A DNA stretch of 64,000 nt. Origin: Escherichia coli. GTDB lineage: Bacteria > Pseudomonadota > Gammaproteobacteria > Enterobacterales > Enterobacteriaceae. Shown here one piece after another: positions 2,878-52,366 of this stretch; within the stretch, counting starts at the first letter, position 1, and the number at the start of each line of letters is the position of its first letter. Made by a program: the position numbers and the translations under genes. The DNA lies in assembly GCF_024502345.1 (NCBI RefSeq), contig NZ_JALDNN010000001.1. One strand, written 5' to 3'. Under the pieces are notes generated by a model. That model searched no databases and was not told the origin of the DNA. It worked only from the letters and a program-made list of their open reading frames with translations.

Positions 2878-4308
2878 TTAATGAACAAAACGTCCGGCAC
2901 GAGACATAAATTCTTCTTCGCTCATCTCCTGTCCGTTAAAAACAACTTTACCCGGTGTATAACGCAGTTGCAGCGAGGCGGTATTGTTGTCAATCGTGAT
3001 TAACTGAAACATCTGACCTAATGTCATCATCCCGCTGATTTGTTTATCCGCCTGCTTTTGCGCTTTTTCCGCATCCATTCCTTCAGATAAATTAAGCTGT
3101 TTTGCGGTTTCTGTGACGACATTAAGCGGTAACTTCACATCAAAATTGAGCGATTTGATATCTTTGTTTGTGGATGATGAAGATTTGGCTGGGTCGGCAA
3201 TACTGATATCCAGATTGGCATTTAGTTCGCCGAGTGCGTTCTTCCATCTTACCGGTTGTTTAATGGTCGGCTCACTTTTTTGTAATAACGGTAAATACTC
3301 TTTGAACAATGCAGCATTCACTTCTTGCAGAGCAACTTCATCGTTTGCTAACTCAGGGTGTGCAGCAAGCTGCTTCTGCATCGCAATGTTATACTGGATG
3401 ATAAATTGGCGCACTGCTGAGGGATCAATAGATTCAGCAATCAATGACCACTCACCACTACCGAGTTGCTGATTCCCTTTTGTTAACTTATCAAGTTCGT
3501 AGGTCAGATTGACATTGATATAATCTTTGTCTTTAACGCGATCCAGCCTGGTTTTTGCAACGAAAGCATCGATTTGGGCAACGTCTTCCCCGTGATTGAT
3601 AATGTTAATCTGATTAAATTTCGACTCGCTTTCACCAACCGGAAATTTCTTTTCTTCTAATCGCGCCAGAGAATCAATGGTAAAACTTTTTGCCGTTACT
3701 TTGTTCATTGGTGATAATTGCAGAACAATATCTTCGACTTTGCCTTCAATATCCAGGTTAGACAATGAACTACCATCACCATTAAAAGTAAACTGGCCCT
3801 CACCAAAAGAAAACTTTCCATACTCTGCAGGGGCAACATCTAATGTCGTAGAGAATGAGCCACCAAACGCGAATCGCAATGTCGCTTCCACGGGCGATTT
3901 ATTTTTCACGGCGATAAATAGCGGTTGTGTCAGTTCATTATTCACTAAGTTCACTTTTGCCGCTGCCAGTGCTGGGATGACATTACCATGCATTAACATT
4001 GTGATGGGCAACGGACCGTGCTCAACATCCACATCAAATACAACTTTCTGGCCTGGCTTGATATTGAGATCGGGTGCACCGTTATCGAATGTCATTTGCA
4101 TTTGAAAACGAGAATTAAAAAAACCTTTGTCAAAATTTTTATAACTTAACGTCATATCGTAGGCATGTTCACCTTTCTTTTTAGCATCGTTAAAATCTTT
4201 AATAAACTTTTCGACACCAGGCTGAATTTGCGTACCTGTGTACCATGTGCCACCACCCCAGATTACGGCTAACGCAACAATAACACCTGTAGCTGACTTA
4301 CGTATCAT
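2878..4308 (-). CDS. yihF: DUF945-family protein YihF
   Basis: 476-aa ORF with N-terminal signal/TM; position between yihG and dsbA. Confidence 0.8.
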   Translation of the reverse strand: MIRKSATGVIVALAVIWGGGTWYTGTQIQPGVEKFIKDFNDAKKKGEHAYDMTLSYKNFDKGFFNSRFQMQMTFDNGAPDLNIKPGQKVVFDVDVEHGPLPITMLMHGNVIPALAAAKVNLVNNELTQPLFIAVKNKSPVEATLRFAFGGSFSTTLDVAPAEYGKFSFGEGQFTFNGDGSSLSNLDIEGKVEDIVLQLSPMNKVTAKSFTIDSLARLEEKKFPVGESESKFNQINIINHGEDVAQIDAFVAKTRLDRVKDKDYINVNLTYELDKLTKGNQQLGSGEWSLIAESIDPSAVRQFIIQYNIAMQKQLAAHPELANDEVALQEVNAALFKEYLPLLQKSEPTIKQPVRWKNALGELNANLDISIADPAKSSSSTNKDIKSLNFDVKLPLNVVTETAKQLNLSEGMDAEKAQKQADKQISGMMTLGQMFQLITIDNNTASLQLRYTPGKVVFNGQEMSEEEFMSRAGRFVH

Positions 4309-33181: not shown

Positions 33182-33657
33182 ATGAGTGATATTATTTACC
33201 TGACCATAACCGGAGAACAACAAGGATGTATTTCCTCTCGTTGTGGAACGAGCGCATCAATAGGTAATCGCTGGCAGATTGGCCATGATGATGAAATCTT
33301 CGCGTTCTCGCTCTCTAATAGTATTACGAATACAGGCAAAGGGTCATAATTGCATGGCCTTAGTTTCTGTAAATTGATTGACAAAAGCTCCCCGTTACTT
33401 ATTAACGCTATTAACAATAACGAGCAGTTGTTCATGGAGTTTGACTTCTATCGGATCAATAGGTTTGGTCGATGGGAGAAATATTACAACATTCAACTCC
33501 GCGGCGCGCTCTTATCAGCAATCAATCACCTGTTTACTGAGAACAATCTGGATACAGAAGCCATCACTGTCAGTTATGAATATATACTCTCCAGGCATCT
33601 GATTGCTAATACTGAATTTAGTTATTTGGCATTTCCCGATAACTACAACCGTCTGTT
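33182..33657 (+). pseudogene. Hcp-family (T6SS tube protein) domain, N-terminal part of a disrupted Hcp-fused toxin gene
   Basis: ATG at 33182 gives MSDIIYLTITGEQQG...; the frame hits TAA at 33347-33349 and resumes in the same frame with the Hcp-like stretch FCKLIDKSSPLL. The reading frame then runs into the IS903 end at 33658. Confidence 0.7.
33649..33657. repeat. IS903 target-site duplication, left copy (CCGTCTGTT)
   Basis: The identical 9-mer recurs at 34715-34723, immediately outside the two inverted repeats. Confidence 0.9.
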
Positions 33658-34714
33658 GGCTTTGTTGAATAAATCGAACTTTTGCTGAGTTGAAGGATCA
33701 GATCACGTATCTTCCCGACAACGCAGACCGTTCCGTGGCAAAGCAAAAGTTCAAAATCACCAACTGGCCCACCTACAATAAAGCCCTCATCAACCGTGGC
33801 TCCATAACTTTCTGGCTGGATGATGAAGCTATTCAGGCCTGGTATGAGTCAGCAACACCTTCTTCACGAGGCAGACCTCAGCGCTATTCTGACCTTGCCA
33901 TCACGACTGTGCTGGTCATTAAACGCGTATTCAGGCTGACCCTGCGCGCTGCGCAGGGCTTTATTGATTCCATTTTTTCTCTGATGAACGTTCCGCTACG
34001 CTGCCCGGATTACAGCTGTGTCAGCAGGCGGGCAAAGTCGGTTAATGTCAGTTTCAAAACGCCCACCCGGGGTGAAATCGCACACCTGGTAATTGATTCC
34101 ACCGGGCTGAAGGTCTTCGGTGAAGGCGAGTGGAAAGTCAAAAAGCATGGCCAGGAACGCCGCCGTATCTGGCGTAAGCTGCATCTCGCCGTTGACAGTA
34201 AAACACATGAAATCATCTGCGCTGACCTGTCGCTGAACAACGTTACGGACTCAGAGGCCTTCCCCGGGTTAATCCGGCAAACCCACCGGAAAATCAGGTC
34301 AGCCGCCGCCGATGGCGCTTACGATACCCGGCTATGTCACGATGAACTGCGGCGTAAGAAAATCAGCGCGCTTATCCCTCCCCGAAAAGGTGCGGGTTAC
34401 TGGCCCGGTGAATATGCAGACCGTAACCGTGCAGTGGCTAATCAGCGAATGACCGGGAGTAATGCGCGGTGGAAATGGACAACAGATTACAACCGTCGCT
34501 CGATAGCGGAAACGGCGATGTACCGGGTAAAACAGCTGTTCGGGGGTTCACTGACACTGCGTGACTACGATGGTCAGGTTGCAGAGGCTATGGCCCTGGT
34601 ACGAGCGCTGAACAAAATGACGAAAGCAGGTATGCCTGAAAGCGTGCGTATTGCCTGAAAACACAACCCGCTACGGGGGAGACTTACCCGAAATCTGATT
34701 TATTCAACAAAGCC
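33658..34714 (+). mobile_element. IS903-type insertion sequence (IS5 family), 1057 bp
   Basis: Terminal 18-bp inverted repeats GGCTTTGTTGAATAAATC (33658-33675, and reverse complement at 34697-34714); internal 322-aa ORF; flanked by a 9-bp direct repeat. Confidence 0.9.
33690..34658 (+). CDS. IS903-type DDE transposase
   Basis: 322-aa ORF matching my recollection of the IS903/IS102 transposase. Confidence 0.85.
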   Translation: MKDQITYLPDNADRSVAKQKFKITNWPTYNKALINRGSITFWLDDEAIQAWYESATPSSRGRPQRYSDLAITTVLVIKRVFRLTLRAAQGFIDSIFSLMNVPLRCPDYSCVSRRAKSVNVSFKTPTRGEIAHLVIDSTGLKVFGEGEWKVKKHGQERRRIWRKLHLAVDSKTHEIICADLSLNNVTDSEAFPGLIRQTHRKIRSAAADGAYDTRLCHDELRRKKISALIPPRKGAGYWPGEYADRNRAVANQRMTGSNARWKWTTDYNRRSIAETAMYRVKQLFGGSLTLRDYDGQVAEAMALVRALNKMTKAGMPESVRIA

Positions 34715-34723
34715 CCGTCTGTT
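34715..34723. repeat. IS903 target-site duplication, right copy (CCGTCTGTT)
   Basis: Exact 9-bp match to 33649-33657. Confidence 0.9.
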
Positions 34724-34753
34724 TATACCACGGCCAAAAACTAAAGCTGGTAA

Positions 34754-35395
34754 TGGTTCAAAACACTTAATAGTAAAGCGGTTGGCAGACTGCTTGCTGC
34801 TGGCGGCATATACAATGGGAATATCGAAGGATTCAGGGAAACAGCAGACAAGTTGGGGGGAGATGCACCTGCTGGTTACGATCAATTTATGGATAACAAA
34901 GGGTTACTCATCGCTGGTGCTTCAATAGTTGCTGGAGCAGTTCTGGGGAGAATGAGACTCCCTGATTTGGAATCACTTGAGCATTTCGGAGCCAGAGGAG
35001 CAGTATCAGGAAGACCATTTAATCCCGACCTTGCCGGTGGTCCAATAGAAAATCTGACGACAGATGGCGTAACAATCAACAGGGAAGGTATCGCTATTGT
35101 TGAAAAACACATAGCCAGATTTGGTCATGACCCTGTAAATGAAGTGATGATCAATAGACTGAAAGACATTGAGAAAGGAAAAATCCCCCCAGAACAAGTA
35201 GATCTTAACTTCTATACTCATGAGTGTCGGGAATATCAGCGTTACTGTAATCTTGGTTGGGAAACAGGACAACCTGATGGTGACGCAGGCTATGCACTCT
35301 GGAATCATACGCATACTGCTACTCTAGAAGATTATAAACTTAAGGGAGAACTTAATGACTTATACCACCAGGATGCACTTGACTATGATAACTGA
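34754..35395 (+). pseudogene. toxin-like C-terminal domain of the disrupted Hcp-fused gene (family not identified)
   Basis: Open frame of 213 codons after a stop at 34751; no ATG near its 5' end (the ORF track uses TTG at 34853). It begins with a Gly/Ala-rich linker (GRLLAAGGIYNGNIEGF...DKLGGDAPAGYDQF). It is in a different frame from the pre-insertion Hcp frame. Confidence 0.5.
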
Positions 35396-35630
35396 AACTG
35401 AAATTAACGTACTGAAAGTTATGGCTGAGAAAGATATAAACTGGAACTGGATGAATCTCGATCGCACACTATCCATAAGGCAAATTCCAGGATTCGGTAA
35501 TGTTGTTAACATTGTTAACAAATTAGCTAACGAGGGTTTGGTTATTATTGAGGATAGCGGACATAAGTCTATGCCTCACTACCACGTTACTGAAAAGGGA
35601 TACAATTTCGTGAAAAGTGAGAATAAATAA
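35355..35630 (+). CDS. putative cognate immunity protein (small cytoplasmic protein)
   Basis: 91-aa ORF with AAGGGAGAA Shine-Dalgarno 6 bp upstream of the ATG at 35355; overlaps the 3' end of the toxin-like ORF (alternative ATG at 35385 overlaps its TGA). Confidence 0.5.
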   Translation: MTYTTRMHLTMITETEINVLKVMAEKDINWNWMNLDRTLSIRQIPGFGNVVNIVNKLANEGLVIIEDSGHKSMPHYHVTEKGYNFVKSENK

Positions 35631-42168: not shown

Positions 42169-42798
42169 ATGACCTTAGAATGGTGGTTTGCCTACCTGCT
42201 GACATCGATCATTTTAAGCCTGTCGCCAGGCTCTGGTGCAATCAACACTATGACCACCTCGCTCAACCACGGTTATCGCGGCGCGGTGGCGTCTATTGCT
42301 GGGCTTCAGACCGGACTGGCGATTCATATTGTGCTGGTTGGCGTGGGGTTGGGGACGCTATTTTCCCGCTCAGTGATTGCGTTTGAAGTGTTGAAGTGGG
42401 CAGGCGCGGCTTACTTGATTTGGCTTGGGATCCAGCAATGGCGCGCCGCTGGCGCAATTGATCTTAAATCGCTGGCCTCTACTCAATCGCGTCGACATTT
42501 GTTCCAGCGCGCAGTTTTTGTGAATCTCACCAATCCCAAAAGTATTGTGTTTCTGGCGGCGCTATTTCCGCAATTCATCATGCCGCAACAGCCGCAACAG
42601 CCGCAACTGATGCAGTATATCGTGCTCGGCGTCACCACTATTGTGGTCGATATTATTGTGATGATCGGTTACGCCACCCTTGCTCAACGGATTGCTCTAT
42701 GGATTAAAGGACCAAAGCAGATGAAGGCGCTGAATAAGATTTTCGGCTCGTTGTTTATGCTGGTGGGAGCGCTGTTAGCATCGGCGAGGCATGCGTGA
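42169..42798 (+). CDS. rhtB: homoserine/homoserine-lactone efflux protein RhtB (LysE family)
   Basis: 209 aa, begins [27 protein letters not shown]; contains an in-frame CCGCAACAG-type repeat (QQPQQPQ). Confidence 0.9.
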
Positions 42799-47992: not shown

Positions 47993-48337
47993 TTATCTTT
48001 TTTTGAAAAAAATTAAGATAAGAAAAAGAACAATATTTGTTACAGGAAGTACCCCCAAAACTCCCCAGTACTTACTCCATCCTAGAGACATCGTATATCT
48101 ACCAAGGATTTGACAAAACCCAAAACTTAACCCTATACCTATACTTCTTAAATTTAATGTCGTAGTCAGGCTTAAAATAAATAGAACAAGGATGGTAATA
48201 GCCCACCACAATAACCATGCCTTAACAAAATCAGATTTTTTGCTGTAAGGTTCTTTACCCAAGAACAACTGCCAAAAGTTACCATTCCCCATATAGAATC
48301 CATTCCCCAAGATATTGTTTATAGAATAAAAATACAT
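47993..48337 (-). CDS. hypothetical small inner-membrane protein (possibly the yigG equivalent)
   Basis: 114-aa ORF with two or three hydrophobic segments in an AT-rich stretch; strand and identity not verified. Confidence 0.35.
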   Translation of the reverse strand: MYFYSINNILGNGFYMGNGNFWQLFLGKEPYSKKSDFVKAWLLWWAITILVLFILSLTTTLNLRSIGIGLSFGFCQILGRYTMSLGWSKYWGVLGVLPVTNIVLFLILIFFKKR

Positions 48338-48616
48338 TCCAATTATATTTAATTAAAATATACCCCATCAATAAAAACTTACACACTCTAAATTACTACT
48401 GTATAGTTATCAATGCAAAGACTGCTATATTGCATATATATATGCAAACCTCATAATTCAGGTAATATATATATTCAAAACAATTATATATAAAAAACAA
48501 TGTAAAAAATATTCAAATCATCCATCAGAAATATATTCTACCCATCCAGGCTTGAGCATTTATCACGCTTTCAGTTCATAATCTATACATTAACATCATG
48601 GTCAATATTAATAACT

Positions 48617-48895
48617 TTGAATGATATCAACCTGGCTTTGAGTTTTATTCTGGTTATTAATAATACCTATGTAAATATCAATATTGGAGCAAAAAGAATA
48701 AGAGATACTGGATGTAAGGCAATCTACTTTGTATTGATTTCATTGGGTTTGACACTTTTTTCTATTATCTCTGCAGCAATTGAAGGGGTGAGATGTGAGT
48801 CATTAAGCGTCCAACTCAACGTGGCATGGATATTATTCACAACAATTATGTTATCTGCGATTCCCTCGGCTAAAATGTCGCTGTCAGCACACTAA
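48617..48895 (+). CDS. hypothetical small membrane protein (possibly the yigF equivalent)
   Basis: 92-aa ORF, hydrophobic, AT-rich context. Confidence 0.3.
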   Translation: MNDINLALSFILVINNTYVNINIGAKRIRDTGCKAIYFVLISLGLTLFSIISAAIEGVRCESLSVQLNVAWILFTTIMLSAIPSAKMSLSAH

Positions 48896-48920
48896 CTTAC
48901 TCACAGCGACATCGTATAGT

Positions 48921-49047
48921 TACAGCCAGTTCTTGCGCTTAAAGTACAGATACGGTGCCAGGCCCGCGAGGATCATAAAGATAATCGCGCCTGGGTAGCC
49001 GAAACTCCACTTCAGTTCTGGCATAAACTCAAAGTTCATGCCATAGC
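48921..49047 (-). pseudogene. displaced duplicate of the corA 3' end (last ~40 codons)
   Basis: ~127 bp, ~94% identical to the corA 3' end at 51419-51545; encodes ...[43 protein letters not shown] with no upstream corA body. Confidence 0.8.
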
Positions 49048-49209
49048 TGGAGGCAATCGGCGTAGGAAAAAGTTTCCTAATCGGTAAATTCAATATTTTG
49101 TTATTAACAATGAGCAAGACCAATCATTAACGACGTTCTCTTCAGAGATGTAATGAAAAAATGTGAAGTGTACTTCTTTTTTAAATATTTTTTTACCCTA
49201 GCATTTGTT

Positions 49210-49218
49210 CTCAAATTG
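49210..49218. repeat. IS1 target-site duplication, left copy (CTCAAATTG)
   Basis: Identical 9-mer at 49987-49995. Confidence 0.9.
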
Positions 49219-49233
49219 GGTAATGACTCCAAC

Positions 49234-49737
49234 TTATTGATAGTGTTTTATGTTCAGATAATGCCCGATGACTTTGTCATGCAGCTCCACCGATTTTGAG
49301 AACGACAGCGACTTCCGTCCCAGCCGTGCCAGGTGCTGCCTCAGATTCAGGTTATGCCGCTCAATTCGCTGCGTATATCGCTTGCTGATTACGTGCAGCT
49401 TTCCCTTCAGGCGGGATTCATACAGCGGCCAGCCATCCGTCATCCATATCACCACGTCAAAGGGTGACAGCAGGCTCATAAGACGCCCCAGCGTCGCCAT
49501 AGTGCGTTCACCGAATACGTGCGCAACAACCGTCTTCCGGAGCCTGTCATACGCGTAAAACAGCCAGCGCTGGCGCGATTTAGCCCCGACGTATCCCCAC
49601 TGTTCGTCCATTTCCGCGCAGACGATGACGTCACTGCCCGGCTGTATGCGCGAGGTTACCGACTGCGGCCTGAGTTTTTTAAATGGCGGAAAATCGTGTT
49701 GAGGCCAACGCCCATAATGCGGGCGGTTGCCCGGCAT
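49234..49737 (-). CDS. insB: IS1 transposase InsB reading frame
   Basis: 167 aa, begins [16 protein letters not shown]. Confidence 0.9.
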
Positions 49738-49931
49738 CCAACGCCATTCATGGCCATATCAATGATTTTCTGGTGCGTACCGGGTTGAGAAGCGGTGTAA
49801 GTGAACTGCAGTTGCCATGTTTTACGGCAGTGAGAGCAGAGATAGCGCTGATGTCCGGCGGTGCTTTTGCCGTTACGCACCACCCCGTCAGTAGCTGAAC
49901 AGGAGGGACAGCTGATAGAAACAGAAGCCAC
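49656..49931 (-). CDS. insA: IS1 InsA
   Basis: 91 aa, begins [42 protein letters not shown]. Confidence 0.9.
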
Positions 49932-49986
49932 TGGAGCACCTCAAAAACACCATCATACACTAAATCAGTAAGTTGGCAGCATCACC

Positions 49987-49995
49987 CTCAAATTG
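49987..49995. repeat. IS1 target-site duplication, right copy (CTCAAATTG)
   Basis: Exact match to 49210-49218. Confidence 0.9.
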
Positions 49996-50121
49996 ATATT
50001 GAGCTTAAATATAACCAAGGAAAATGTAAATGAATAACACATTACTTCCATCAATTAATATTCCCTGTACACTTTTCGAAACTATTAGTTTATTTGATGA
50101 TTATTCTGCTGATGATATGCA

Positions 50122-50145
50122 ATATGGTGATATGGTGATATGGTA
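50122..50145. repeat. 8-bp tandem repeat (ATATGGTG x3, last copy imperfect) spanning the start codon of ORF 50140
   Basis: atatggtg atatggtg atatggta; each unit contains an ATG, and only the third is in frame with the long ORF. Confidence 0.8.
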
Positions 50146-50886
50146 GAACAAGATTTTCTCTCACTCGGCCTAAGCGATATCTCAGCAAAAGTTGATCCTT
50201 ACAGACTTATTAAATACCATTTCCCTAGCCCAGGTTCTATTAATGTTGCTTTTAGTGCCTCAAGTTCCGGAACAAAAATATCACAACGTGAATGCACTGA
50301 TATTTTATTTGCAGAAATGAAAGAACTAGCAAAAATGTTTTCCTTTTTTGGACAATATAAAACACTTATCGAAGATCTGATTGAACATTTTAGATATGGA
50401 AATGGCAGCAATTTTCATAGCCAACAATTAAATTTATCTTTTCATGAAAAAATAAATAAATATGGTTATAATAGTCCAATACGAATAATCAAAGAATGTA
50501 TCGAAAATGGCATTAATTCAACTCCCTCGACAGGATACCAACCTCTTATCCTGCAAAGCATTAAAACCAAATTACTTTCATCAAGACTAAATAAATTTAA
50601 TGACTTCGAGGACAGTTTTAATGGCTTAGGAATCAGTGTTCATGATATTTCAGCTCAAAAAATATCTCTTTTAAGTTTTCAAAAATACGCTATAGGATGG
50701 AGTGCAACAATTCATTTTGTAGCACAGGACCACTTCGGTCTTGATGTAACTGATATCAAAAACAAGACTTACAGCAAATATAGATTTTTTCGCATATGGT
50801 TCTTTTTACAACGGCATAAAGACTTTGCTTTCAAACCTTTTTTCACCAATTTTAACACTATCGAAAGAATCGAAAATTATCTATGA
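50140..50886 (+). CDS. hypothetical protein, 248 aa, no signal peptide (candidate effector/toxin of a two-gene module)
   Basis: Long ORF in AT-rich DNA; its stop overlaps the next ORF's start (ATGA at 50883-50886). Confidence 0.5.
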   Translation: MVEQDFLSLGLSDISAKVDPYRLIKYHFPSPGSINVAFSASSSGTKISQRECTDILFAEMKELAKMFSFFGQYKTLIEDLIEHFRYGNGSNFHSQQLNLSFHEKINKYGYNSPIRIIKECIENGINSTPSTGYQPLILQSIKTKLLSSRLNKFNDFEDSFNGLGISVHDISAQKISLLSFQKYAIGWSATIHFVAQDHFGLDVTDIKNKTYSKYRFFRIWFFLQRHKDFAFKPFFTNFNTIERIENYL

Positions 50887-51374
50887 AAAGCAAACTCCAG
50901 AAAATTATATTATGTTTATTTCTTCTATGCTGCATCTATAATTTATGGACATTGCGTCCTGTACAGATTTTGTATACATACTCTGATGCTGGCAATTCAG
51001 TCTTTCTGGTCGTTGATCATCTGCCATGGACTGACAGCGATAAAATAAATTGGTATCTGAAGCATCAGAATGAAATTAAAAATCAACATCCCCTACCAGA
51101 AGGTAGTTGGCATACCTGGTATGTCATTGATATCGGTAATGGCTTCACTGACTATAAAAAATATATCGAAGGGCCGTATGAAGATCTCTACTGTTTCCCG
51201 ACAATTAAGAGCAATGATAATTGCATCGTGAAAAATTACTTAATGGTTATTAATGAATACCCTTATCGTAACACTCATATTGTTATTAACGATTTTACTG
51301 AGTATCAATTAACACAAGAAAATAAAATAGAGCGAGTTTTCAATCCGCATGACTTTAAAAAAGACAATTTTTAG
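50883..51374 (+). CDS. hypothetical exported/membrane-anchored protein, 163 aa (candidate immunity partner)
   Basis: N-terminal MKSKLQKIILCLFLLCCIYNLWTL is a signal or anchor sequence; translationally coupled to the upstream ORF. Confidence 0.5.
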   Translation: MKSKLQKIILCLFLLCCIYNLWTLRPVQILYTYSDAGNSVFLVVDHLPWTDSDKINWYLKHQNEIKNQHPLPEGSWHTWYVIDIGNGFTDYKKYIEGPYEDLYCFPTIKSNDNCIVKNYLMVINEYPYRNTHIVINDFTEYQLTQENKIERVFNPHDFKKDNF

Positions 51375-51415
51375 AAATAAGCCGGATAAAAAAATAGCTT
51401 TATCCGGCACTCATA

Positions 51416-52366
51416 TTACAACCAGTTCTTCCGCTTAAAGTACAGATACGGTGCCAGGCCCGCGAGGATCATAAAGATAATCGCGCCTGGGTAGCCGAAA
51501 CTCCACTTCAACTCTGGCATAAATTCAAAGTTCATCCCGTAGCTGGAAGCCACCAGCGTCGGTGGCAGGAACACCACGGATACCACCGAGAAGATTTTGA
51601 TGATGCGGTTCTGCTCGATGTTGATAAAGCCCATCGCCGCCTGCATCAGGAAGTTCACCTTCTGGAACAGGGATTCGTTATGCGGCAGCAGGGATTCGAT
51701 ATCTCGCAGGATTTCACGCGCCTGCTCCAGTTGCCCACCCGGTAAACGCGCCTTGCGTACCAGGAAGTTGAGCGCACGCTGGGTATCCATCAGACACAGG
51801 CGAACTTTCCAGCCGATATCTTCCAGTTCCGCCAGCGTGGAGAGCGCCTCATCGTACTCATCGCCCTGATGCCCTTCCATAATTACCCGGCTCAACTGCT
51901 CCAGATCGCTGTAGATATTTTCAATTTCATCTGCCAGCTGTTCGATTTTGGTTTCGAACAGATCCAACAGCAGCTCGTAGGCGTTACCGTCCACCATTGA
52001 CTGGCTACGGGCGCGCATACGATACAGACGGAATGCAGGCAGTTCACGCTCACGCAGAGTAAACAGACGACCATCACGGATGGTAAATGCCACAGTGGAG
52101 TTACCGGCGTGATCTTCCGCATCTTCAAAGAAGAAGAAGGAGTGAATATGCAGGCCGTCATCGTCTTCAAAGAAACGTGCCGATGCTTCGATGTCTTCCA
52201 GTTCCGGGCGGGTTGCCAGGCTCTGGCCAAGTTCAGATTGTACGCGCAGTCGCTCGTCGTCGTCCGGTTCGACAAGATCAATCCATACTGCATTTACAAG
52301 GGGTTGTGACTCTTCGACTTCCAGCCGGGTCAGTCGGTTATTTTCCAGTTGAAATGCGCTCAGCAT
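51416..52366 (-). CDS. corA: magnesium/cobalt transport protein CorA
   Basis: ORF 51416..52381; the start is [16 protein letters not shown] at 52366 (316 aa); GMN motif (YGMNF) and two C-terminal TM helices. Confidence 0.95.

Follow-up and report, generated by a model that had tools for sequence, protein, structure and literature searches.

The stretch of DNA analysed here, a window of 64,000 nucleotides from Escherichia coli, contains next to the chromosomal gene corA a small cassette in which a gene of the DUF3289/YPO3983 family, encoding a putative toxin and called the toxin gene below, is followed by a DUF943 gene (Table 1). The GC content of the cassette is 0.30-0.35 versus about 0.52 in the flanks, and the cassette is bracketed by a duplicated 3' end of corA (136-148 bp), whose far copy is annotated by PGAP in syntenic genomes as "CorA family... 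incomplete". Two forms exist of the region upstream of this corA fragment, one with yigF-yigG and the other with a small gene of low GC content whose product is hypothetical. In the window, the stretch from rarD to the fragment (47993-48895) has a GC content of 0.285-0.315 and contains two ORFs without a Pfam match, of 114 aa (minus strand) and 92 aa (plus strand), together with an AT-rich tandem repeat of two 17-bp copies (48468-48501); in syntenic genomes, a hypothetical protein of 99 aa is annotated in this stretch.

Table 1. Features of the toxin-immunity cassette and its borders in the window.
Feature	Position	Strand	Basis or remark
Duplicated 3' corA fragment, far edge of the cassette	48916-49063	-	94% identical to 51413-51547 (blastn)
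IS1, 768 bp, insA/insB, 43 bp upstream of the toxin start	49219-49986	-	9-bp target duplication CTCAAATTG at 49210-49218 and 49987-49995
5' segment of the disrupted DUF3289/YPO3983 (putative toxin) gene	50030-50146	+	Translation by copy number; profile match of the rebuilt protein
Three-unit tandem array	50122-50145	+	Clean 8-bp gap relative to two-unit alleles; one unit is an 8-bp duplication
3' segment of the DUF3289/YPO3983 (putative toxin) gene (248-aa ORF)	50140-50886	+	Corresponds to residues 35-282 of the 282-aa form
Intact DUF943 gene, 163 aa, putative cognate immunity protein	50883-51374	+	PF06092, 93.2 bits, profile positions 1-150 of 151
Intact corA, chromosomal gene adjoining the cassette	51416-52366	-	Annotation of syntenic loci

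The IS1 element of the window is absent from both HCP4S3_I4 and VREC0864. In STEC388 (locus L003, about 1795-2547), an IS1 end is found at the same insertion point with a variant of the target duplication (CTCGAATTG), but the allele there has two units and flanks of only 97.8% identity, and the shared point may reflect either an insertion hot spot or a transfer by recombination. When the upstream sequence was scanned for promoters, with and without the IS1, consensus matches were no commoner than in shuffled sequences. A hybrid promoter-like consensus match, TTGGCA-16-GATATT with the TTGGCA in the IS1 end, lies at 49973-50000, and such sites are also no commoner than in shuffles.

The array reads ATATGGTG + ATATGGTG + ATATGGTA, which bears out the three tandem 8-bp copies described in the earlier note, and Tandem Repeats Finder delimits it at 50122-50144 with a period of 8, 2.9 copies, 100% matches and a score of 46. 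There is no second period-8 array of such length in the window, and an array of this period with at least 2.9 copies arose in none of 200 dinucleotide-preserving shuffles of the window, so that the array is beyond chance. The two-unit state, on the other hand, corresponds to a 15-nt run, for which the shuffles give 3.15 expected occurrences per window against three observed; given this chance level, it is the third unit alone that needs to be explained. Apart from the 8-bp array, the window has just one exact repeat of about three copies, a perfect 9-bp repeat of 2.9 copies (GCCGCAACA, 42582-42607), which has a unit that is a multiple of three and lies near rhtB/rhtC, as judged by synteny with HCP4S3_I4.

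The array contains ATGs at 50124, 50132 and 50140, and their positions agree with the earlier reading that the first two run into immediate stops and only the third is in frame with the long ORF, as ATG 50124 leads to a TGA at 50136-50138 and ATG 50132 to a TAG at 50144-50146, each after four codons, and ATG 50140 begins the 248-aa ORF. An ATG at 50030, with an AAGGA ribosome-binding site, reads through the repeat in a frame other than that of this ORF, and continues for 38 codons (MNNTLLPSINIPCTLFETISLFDDYSADDMQYGDMVIW) until it meets the same TAG inside the array. The extra unit thus shifts the frame, in such a way that translation from 50030 ends after 38 codons and 248 codons are left in the other frame. 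When one 8-bp unit is deleted in silico, both frames fuse into a single protein of 282 aa.

Given this, the proposals that the repeat spans the start codon of the gene, and that the copy number picks the ATG that leads into the ORF, do not hold. The gene has 282 codons and its start at 50030; in its two-unit form, the repeat is codons 32-36 (Y32-G33-D34-M35-V36), over the invariant G-D-M motif, and the three-unit array spans codons 32-38. Since the ATG of the last unit is at a fixed distance from the downstream ORF, it is in frame whatever the copy number, and what the copy number sets is the frame relative to the upstream start. In an in-silico series of one to seven units, the full-length product was obtained at n=2 only, given that n=1 is frameshifted and any array of three or more units meets a TGA or TAG within the units.

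Inside the toxin gene, these 8 bp are the sole difference between the window and the two-unit VREC0864, in which PGAP annotates an intact 849-bp CDS. The identical three-unit allele of HCP4S3_I4 is already flagged in RefSeq, where PGAP labels it "YPO3983 family protein, frameshifted". The conserved N-terminal 34 residues are split from the rest of the protein by the extra unit, and the 38-aa ORF given by the gene callers has a weak match to DUF3289.

The family assignment follows from profile matches above the curated cut-offs for both the 248-aa ORF and the rebuilt protein. For PF11692 (DUF3289, cut-off 25), the ORF scores 245.6 bits over profile positions 30-270 and the rebuilt 282-aa protein 286.6 bits over positions 2-270, and for TIGR03034 (YPO3983, cut-off 156), the scores are 386.5 bits over positions 28-274 and 439.2 bits over positions 1-274, respectively. 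Full coverage of the profile in one frame is absent from the window and becomes complete only after the removal of one 8-bp unit; as the profile is split over two frames, the gene is a disrupted member of the DUF3289/YPO3983 family. The arrangement is that of a frameshift pseudogene, as the two neighbouring ORFs, in different frames, correspond to successive parts of a single family whose orthologues are colinear in one frame. The homologues in Salmonella, Enterobacter, Lelliottia and Trabulsiella are 278-283 aa long, with a coverage of the rebuilt protein of 97-100%, and in an alignment of 30 homologues with 58-98% identity, residues P12, F16, E17, G33, D34 and M35 are invariant, which indicates that the lost N-terminus is conserved.

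A DUF3289 protein was found to be toxic in the periplasm of E. coli, with rounding of the cells, to resemble colicin M structurally and to be neutralised by DUF943 (PMC11148199), and in Aeromonas jandaei, a DUF3289 protein is a T6SS-secreted antibacterial effector whose immunity gene lies downstream (PMC12135965). Solved structures exist for two distant DUF3289 proteins. The AF2 model of the intact protein has a mean pLDDT of 63, with residues 1-33 below 50, and a Foldseek search with this model gave 9jdi_A as the top and only significant PDB match (E 1.1e-5, TM 0.41), i.e., the DUF3289 structure in the T6SS effector-immunity complex BtpeA-BtpiA of Bacteroides fragilis; colicin M was not retrieved by Foldseek with a model of this pLDDT. 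By analogy with these relatives, the gene in the window can be regarded as a putative orphan T6SS toxin of the DUF3289/YPO3983 family, presumably colicin-M-like and acting in the periplasm. The T6EC1/T6IC1 pair (PMC11148199; PMC12135965) presents the same order of a full-length DUF3289, here the rebuilt one, and then a DUF943, an architecture that those two papers established as a toxin-immunity pair, whereas the protein of the window is stand-alone, is encoded beside corA and away from any T6SS cluster in the window, and belongs to a frameshifted gene for a putative toxin.

We consider it very likely that the window holds an ordinary inactivating 8-bp duplication in an orphan T6SS toxin gene, i.e., a frameshift pseudogene produced by slipped-strand mispairing. 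In the normal allele, the two adjacent near-identical 8-mers would merely be the codons for Y32-V36, and replication slippage between them would add the third unit (+8 bp). The product of the start at 50030 would then end at the TAG of the array, by which the full-length toxin would be lost and the DUF943 immunity gene would remain intact, and in the window strain, IS1 would additionally separate the toxin gene from its upstream region. We infer from the sequence comparisons that slipped-strand mispairing between chance-level direct repeats was the origin of the third unit, and that the function of the full-length toxin is lost in the three-unit allele. The term pseudogene may, however, overstate this loss if the truncated 248-aa protein is made and is partly active.

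The translation signals around the array bear directly on this last point. The downstream gene belongs to DUF943 by its match to PF06092 and by its place directly 3' of the DUF3289 gene, and its role as the immunity protein of the toxin is taken from a characterised pair (PMC11148199), so that it is putative here. Its ATG (50883) overlaps the stop of the toxin gene (ATGA), and its own ribosome-binding site is almost absent (-1.4 kcal/mol), from which it follows that the start of DUF943 probably depends on translational coupling. In the three-unit allele, a GGUGAU contributed by the preceding unit lies 8 nt 5' of ATG 50140 and pairs with the 3' tail of the 16S rRNA at -8.8 kcal/mol, compared with a weaker pairing of -5.4 kcal/mol at the native start 50030, and the stop of the upstream ORF overlaps ATG 50140 (ATGGTAG). 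A truncated 248-aa product may thus be made in this allele, and the translation of its frame could keep DUF943 coupled.

It is from these signals that the main rival to an inactivating duplication arises, a rather unlikely one in our judgement, by which the split gene would still be functional, with reinitiation at ATG 50140 or ribosome entry at the GGUGAU yielding a 248-aa protein that is either toxic or serves to couple DUF943. The stronger pairing ahead of ATG 50140, the ATGGTAG overlap and the probable dependence of the nearly site-less DUF943 start on the ATGA junction all favour such a reading, as does the 248-aa ORF, which is free of other lesions both in the window and in nine more three-unit loci, although an unblemished ORF is also expected after a recent mutation. 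The truncated product, on the other hand, would be devoid of 34 residues that include the invariant P12, F16, E17, G33 and D34, as well as of 27-29 positions of the family profiles, and the native promoter may have been lost through the IS1 inserted 43 bp ahead of the start.

A slow and low-copy contingency site is an improbable alternative to a plain pseudogene, in which the expansion to three or four units would reversibly shut the full-length toxin off and the GGUGAU-N8-AUG built by each added unit would keep DUF943 expressed; if this were true, lineages could give up the weapon while retaining the shield, and win the weapon back through the loss of a unit. Similarly improbable is the switch suggested by the earlier note, taken as a phase-variable contingency locus at which the gain or loss of 8 bp by slipped-strand mispairing turns the ORF on and off adaptively. 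The array does have the anatomy of such a locus, given that it is a tandem repeat of an 8-bp unit, hence not divisible by three, within the coding region and towards its 5' end, and the window allele would revert precisely to the intact gene if one unit were lost. The literature was searched for T6SS effectors that vary in phase by slipped-strand mispairing, and nothing relevant was returned.

The number of units was also counted in natural populations. The toxin gene, and with it the cassette, is present in 2,644 of the 5,426 complete E. coli genomes, about half of them, and the copy number was read with an 84-nt query that has 30-nt flanks and thereby forces gapped alignments. Among the 1,702 complete genomes with the allele, every full-length match spans 76 nt, i.e., two units, except that of strain HCP4S3_I4, which has three; none of these genomes has one unit, and the four-unit allele was found in none of the 5,426 genomes searched. 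The divergent alleles of 86-87% identity, in a spread sample, are also of two-unit length. A 50-nt query proved unfit for this purpose, as two overlapping 28-nt pieces from two-unit genomes were joined to 100% coverage, and the 518 genomes that it returned at a coverage of at least 80% give, with their joined pieces, no information on copy number.

In wider assemblies, the two-unit state is represented by the intact 282-aa protein on 246 contigs, in a cluster of 3,798 member sequences, the three-unit state by the exact 248-aa product on 61 contigs and the exact 38-aa product on 57, and the four-unit state by a variant with G88S on about 10 contigs. Ten loci with the exact 248-aa product were fetched, of which nine have three units, and one of these nine, L013, has the same IS1 junction as the window. 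The four-unit alleles linked to G88S were seen in L014-L018 (in L014 at about 335-372), on metagenome and Logan contigs. The tenth of the fetched loci, L004, is a metagenome scaffold of two-unit length with a different premature stop, an ATG TGA in place of ATG CAA at codon 31 (about 2985-3006); its haplotype is that of the three-unit L005, with an A-to-T change just before the ribosome-binding site, and it could derive from an out-of-register 8-bp deletion in a three-unit allele, from a double substitution or from an assembly chimera. The copy number across isolates, which the earlier note had singled out as the quantity to check, is therefore near-invariant in complete genomes (1/1,702), yet three- and four-unit alleles do exist in the wider assemblies. 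This suggests repeated slippage, from two units to three and then to four, with departures from two units that are rare and always broken alleles.

The haplotypes around the array bear on the persistence of these alleles. A single proximal upstream haplotype is common to all the three-unit loci and is separated from that of VREC0864, with its two units, by about 18 differing sites over 2 kb, and farther out, two upstream and two downstream sub-haplotypes are found in all four combinations, with nested breakpoints. The presence of all four combinations is what an old allele later recombined into different flanks would produce, and it implies a long persistence without reversion, and the three-unit allele, judged by these flanks, looks like a stable inherited pseudogene allele and not a fast switch. 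The toxin gene is near-identical across backgrounds and the informative sites are in the flanks only; the nested mosaics are compatible with a single origin followed by recombination, and recurrent events from two to three units on the same gene allele are possible. The nearest two-unit complete genomes are about 4 SNPs away from the window over 2.4 kb. The four-unit loci, for their part, show 1-2 differences from the three-unit L007-L009, which suggests a second step from three to four units.

The existence of two-, three- and four-unit alleles in nature, and the stepwise growth suggested by the small distance of the four-unit loci from L007-L009, also speak in favour of phase variation. However, frequent variation among isolates, close relatives included, was not found, either among the 1,702 complete genomes, with their single departure from two units, or in the wider data, where it is confined to minority lineages, and even the closest two-unit genomes are separated from the window by several SNPs. 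Recurrent ON states were not found among n=1 to 7 either, as the single ON state at two units, with stops at all the higher numbers, leaves no periodic ON/OFF pattern. In addition, the two-unit state occurs no more than by chance and is the coding sequence of a conserved motif, and the three-unit allele on recombined flanks implies a long persistence without reversion.

Contingency loci such as opa in Neisseria (CTCTT) and lic1 in Haemophilus (CAAT) are intragenic simple repeats which, like the present array, lie in the 5' coding region and alter the frame with copy number through slippage. The arrays of established contingency loci are, however, far longer than two to four units, and those of the opa/lic1 type have many units, switch at high rates, vary both among and within close isolates and return to ON with each third copy number, whereas the present array has 2-4 units, differs in one of 1,702 genomes, is ON at n=2 only and has a three-unit allele that persists across recombined haplotypes. 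The array thus resembles a contingency locus in anatomy only. Of the slipped-strand switch that was first proposed, one part stands, since the array behaves as a slippage product, with two, three and four units in nature, and the loss of one unit would change expression, and the other part, a switch at the start codon, is unsupported.

A parallel to an inactivating duplication is the CTGG frameshift hot spot in lacI of E. coli, reportedly described by Farabaugh, Schmeissner, Hofer and Miller in 1978. There, as here, a coding region contains a short tandem repeat whose unit length is not divisible by three, the gain or loss of one whole unit by slippage causes frameshifts, and the expanded allele can revert. 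The two cases differ in that the unit is here 8 bp and not 4 bp, the wild type has only two units, and the evidence is a natural polymorphism (two, three and four units) and not measured mutation spectra.

Assembly errors do at times arise at short tandem repeats, but the chance that the third unit is a sequencing or assembly artefact is negligible, as the same three-unit sequence is present in the complete genome of HCP4S3_I4 and in at least nine other independent contigs from isolates and metagenomes, among them L013 with the same IS1 junction, and the artefact is effectively refuted by these independent occurrences. The 61 and 57 contigs with the exact 248-aa and 38-aa products likewise come from independent isolates and metagenomes. 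A programmed ribosomal frameshift through the three-unit array, which would restore the full-length protein, is just as remote: nothing specific supports it beyond the fact that both halves of the gene are otherwise intact, the insertion of 8 bp would demand that ribosomes shift by +1 or by -2 in the few codons that precede the TAG, and the arrangement occurs in no homologue, a single frame being used in 30/30 aligned homologues and about 1,700 genomes, so that it was rejected on the colinearity of the intact genes in one frame.

The 8-bp duplication is not the only lesion of this gene in E. coli. The toxin gene of STEC388 has a 1-bp deletion (GGACCAC to GGA-CAC), and in strain 104 (H131), an IS1 is found inside the toxin gene, and the toxin has thus been inactivated independently several times, by an 8-bp duplication, a 1-bp deletion and an IS1 insertion. 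The toxin matches in H129, H130, H148 and H149 have lengths that are off by -1, +3 or -11 bases.

A second decayed T6SS locus was observed in the window at 33183-35630. Here, an Hcp/TssD gene starts at 33183 and is interrupted by an in-frame TAA near 33347, the remainder (33350-33688) matching positions 51-125 of PF05638, and the broken gene is followed by a gene for an IS5-family DDE transposase (33690-34658). The 180-aa ORF (34853-35395) and the 91-aa ORF (35355-35630) that come next have no Pfam match and are possibly the detached Hcp-fused toxin domain and its immunity gene. At this Hcp locus, HCP4S3_I4 has an IS3 and a tssD that its annotation describes as both frameshifted and partial.

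Orphan T6SS immunity genes are kept beside degraded effector genes in effector-immunity islands, and the present locus is similar in its broken toxin gene and intact immunity gene, whereas it differs from them in that the toxin gene is still intact in most of the E. coli that bear the cassette. The overall picture is one of an erosion of orphan T6SS weaponry with the immunity retained.

Taken alone, the inactivating duplication has little weight: a mis-called start is corrected, and the 248-aa ORF is recognised as the tail of a 282-aa toxin gene. For annotation pipelines and ORF scans, it means that tandem repeats beside an apparent start codon should be treated as possible internal frameshifts. 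For the biology of E. coli, the stepwise growth from two to three and four units in natural populations would mark a small slippage hot spot, and possibly a lineage marker, and the locus adds one more orphan T6SS toxin that is decaying while its putative immunity gene survives.
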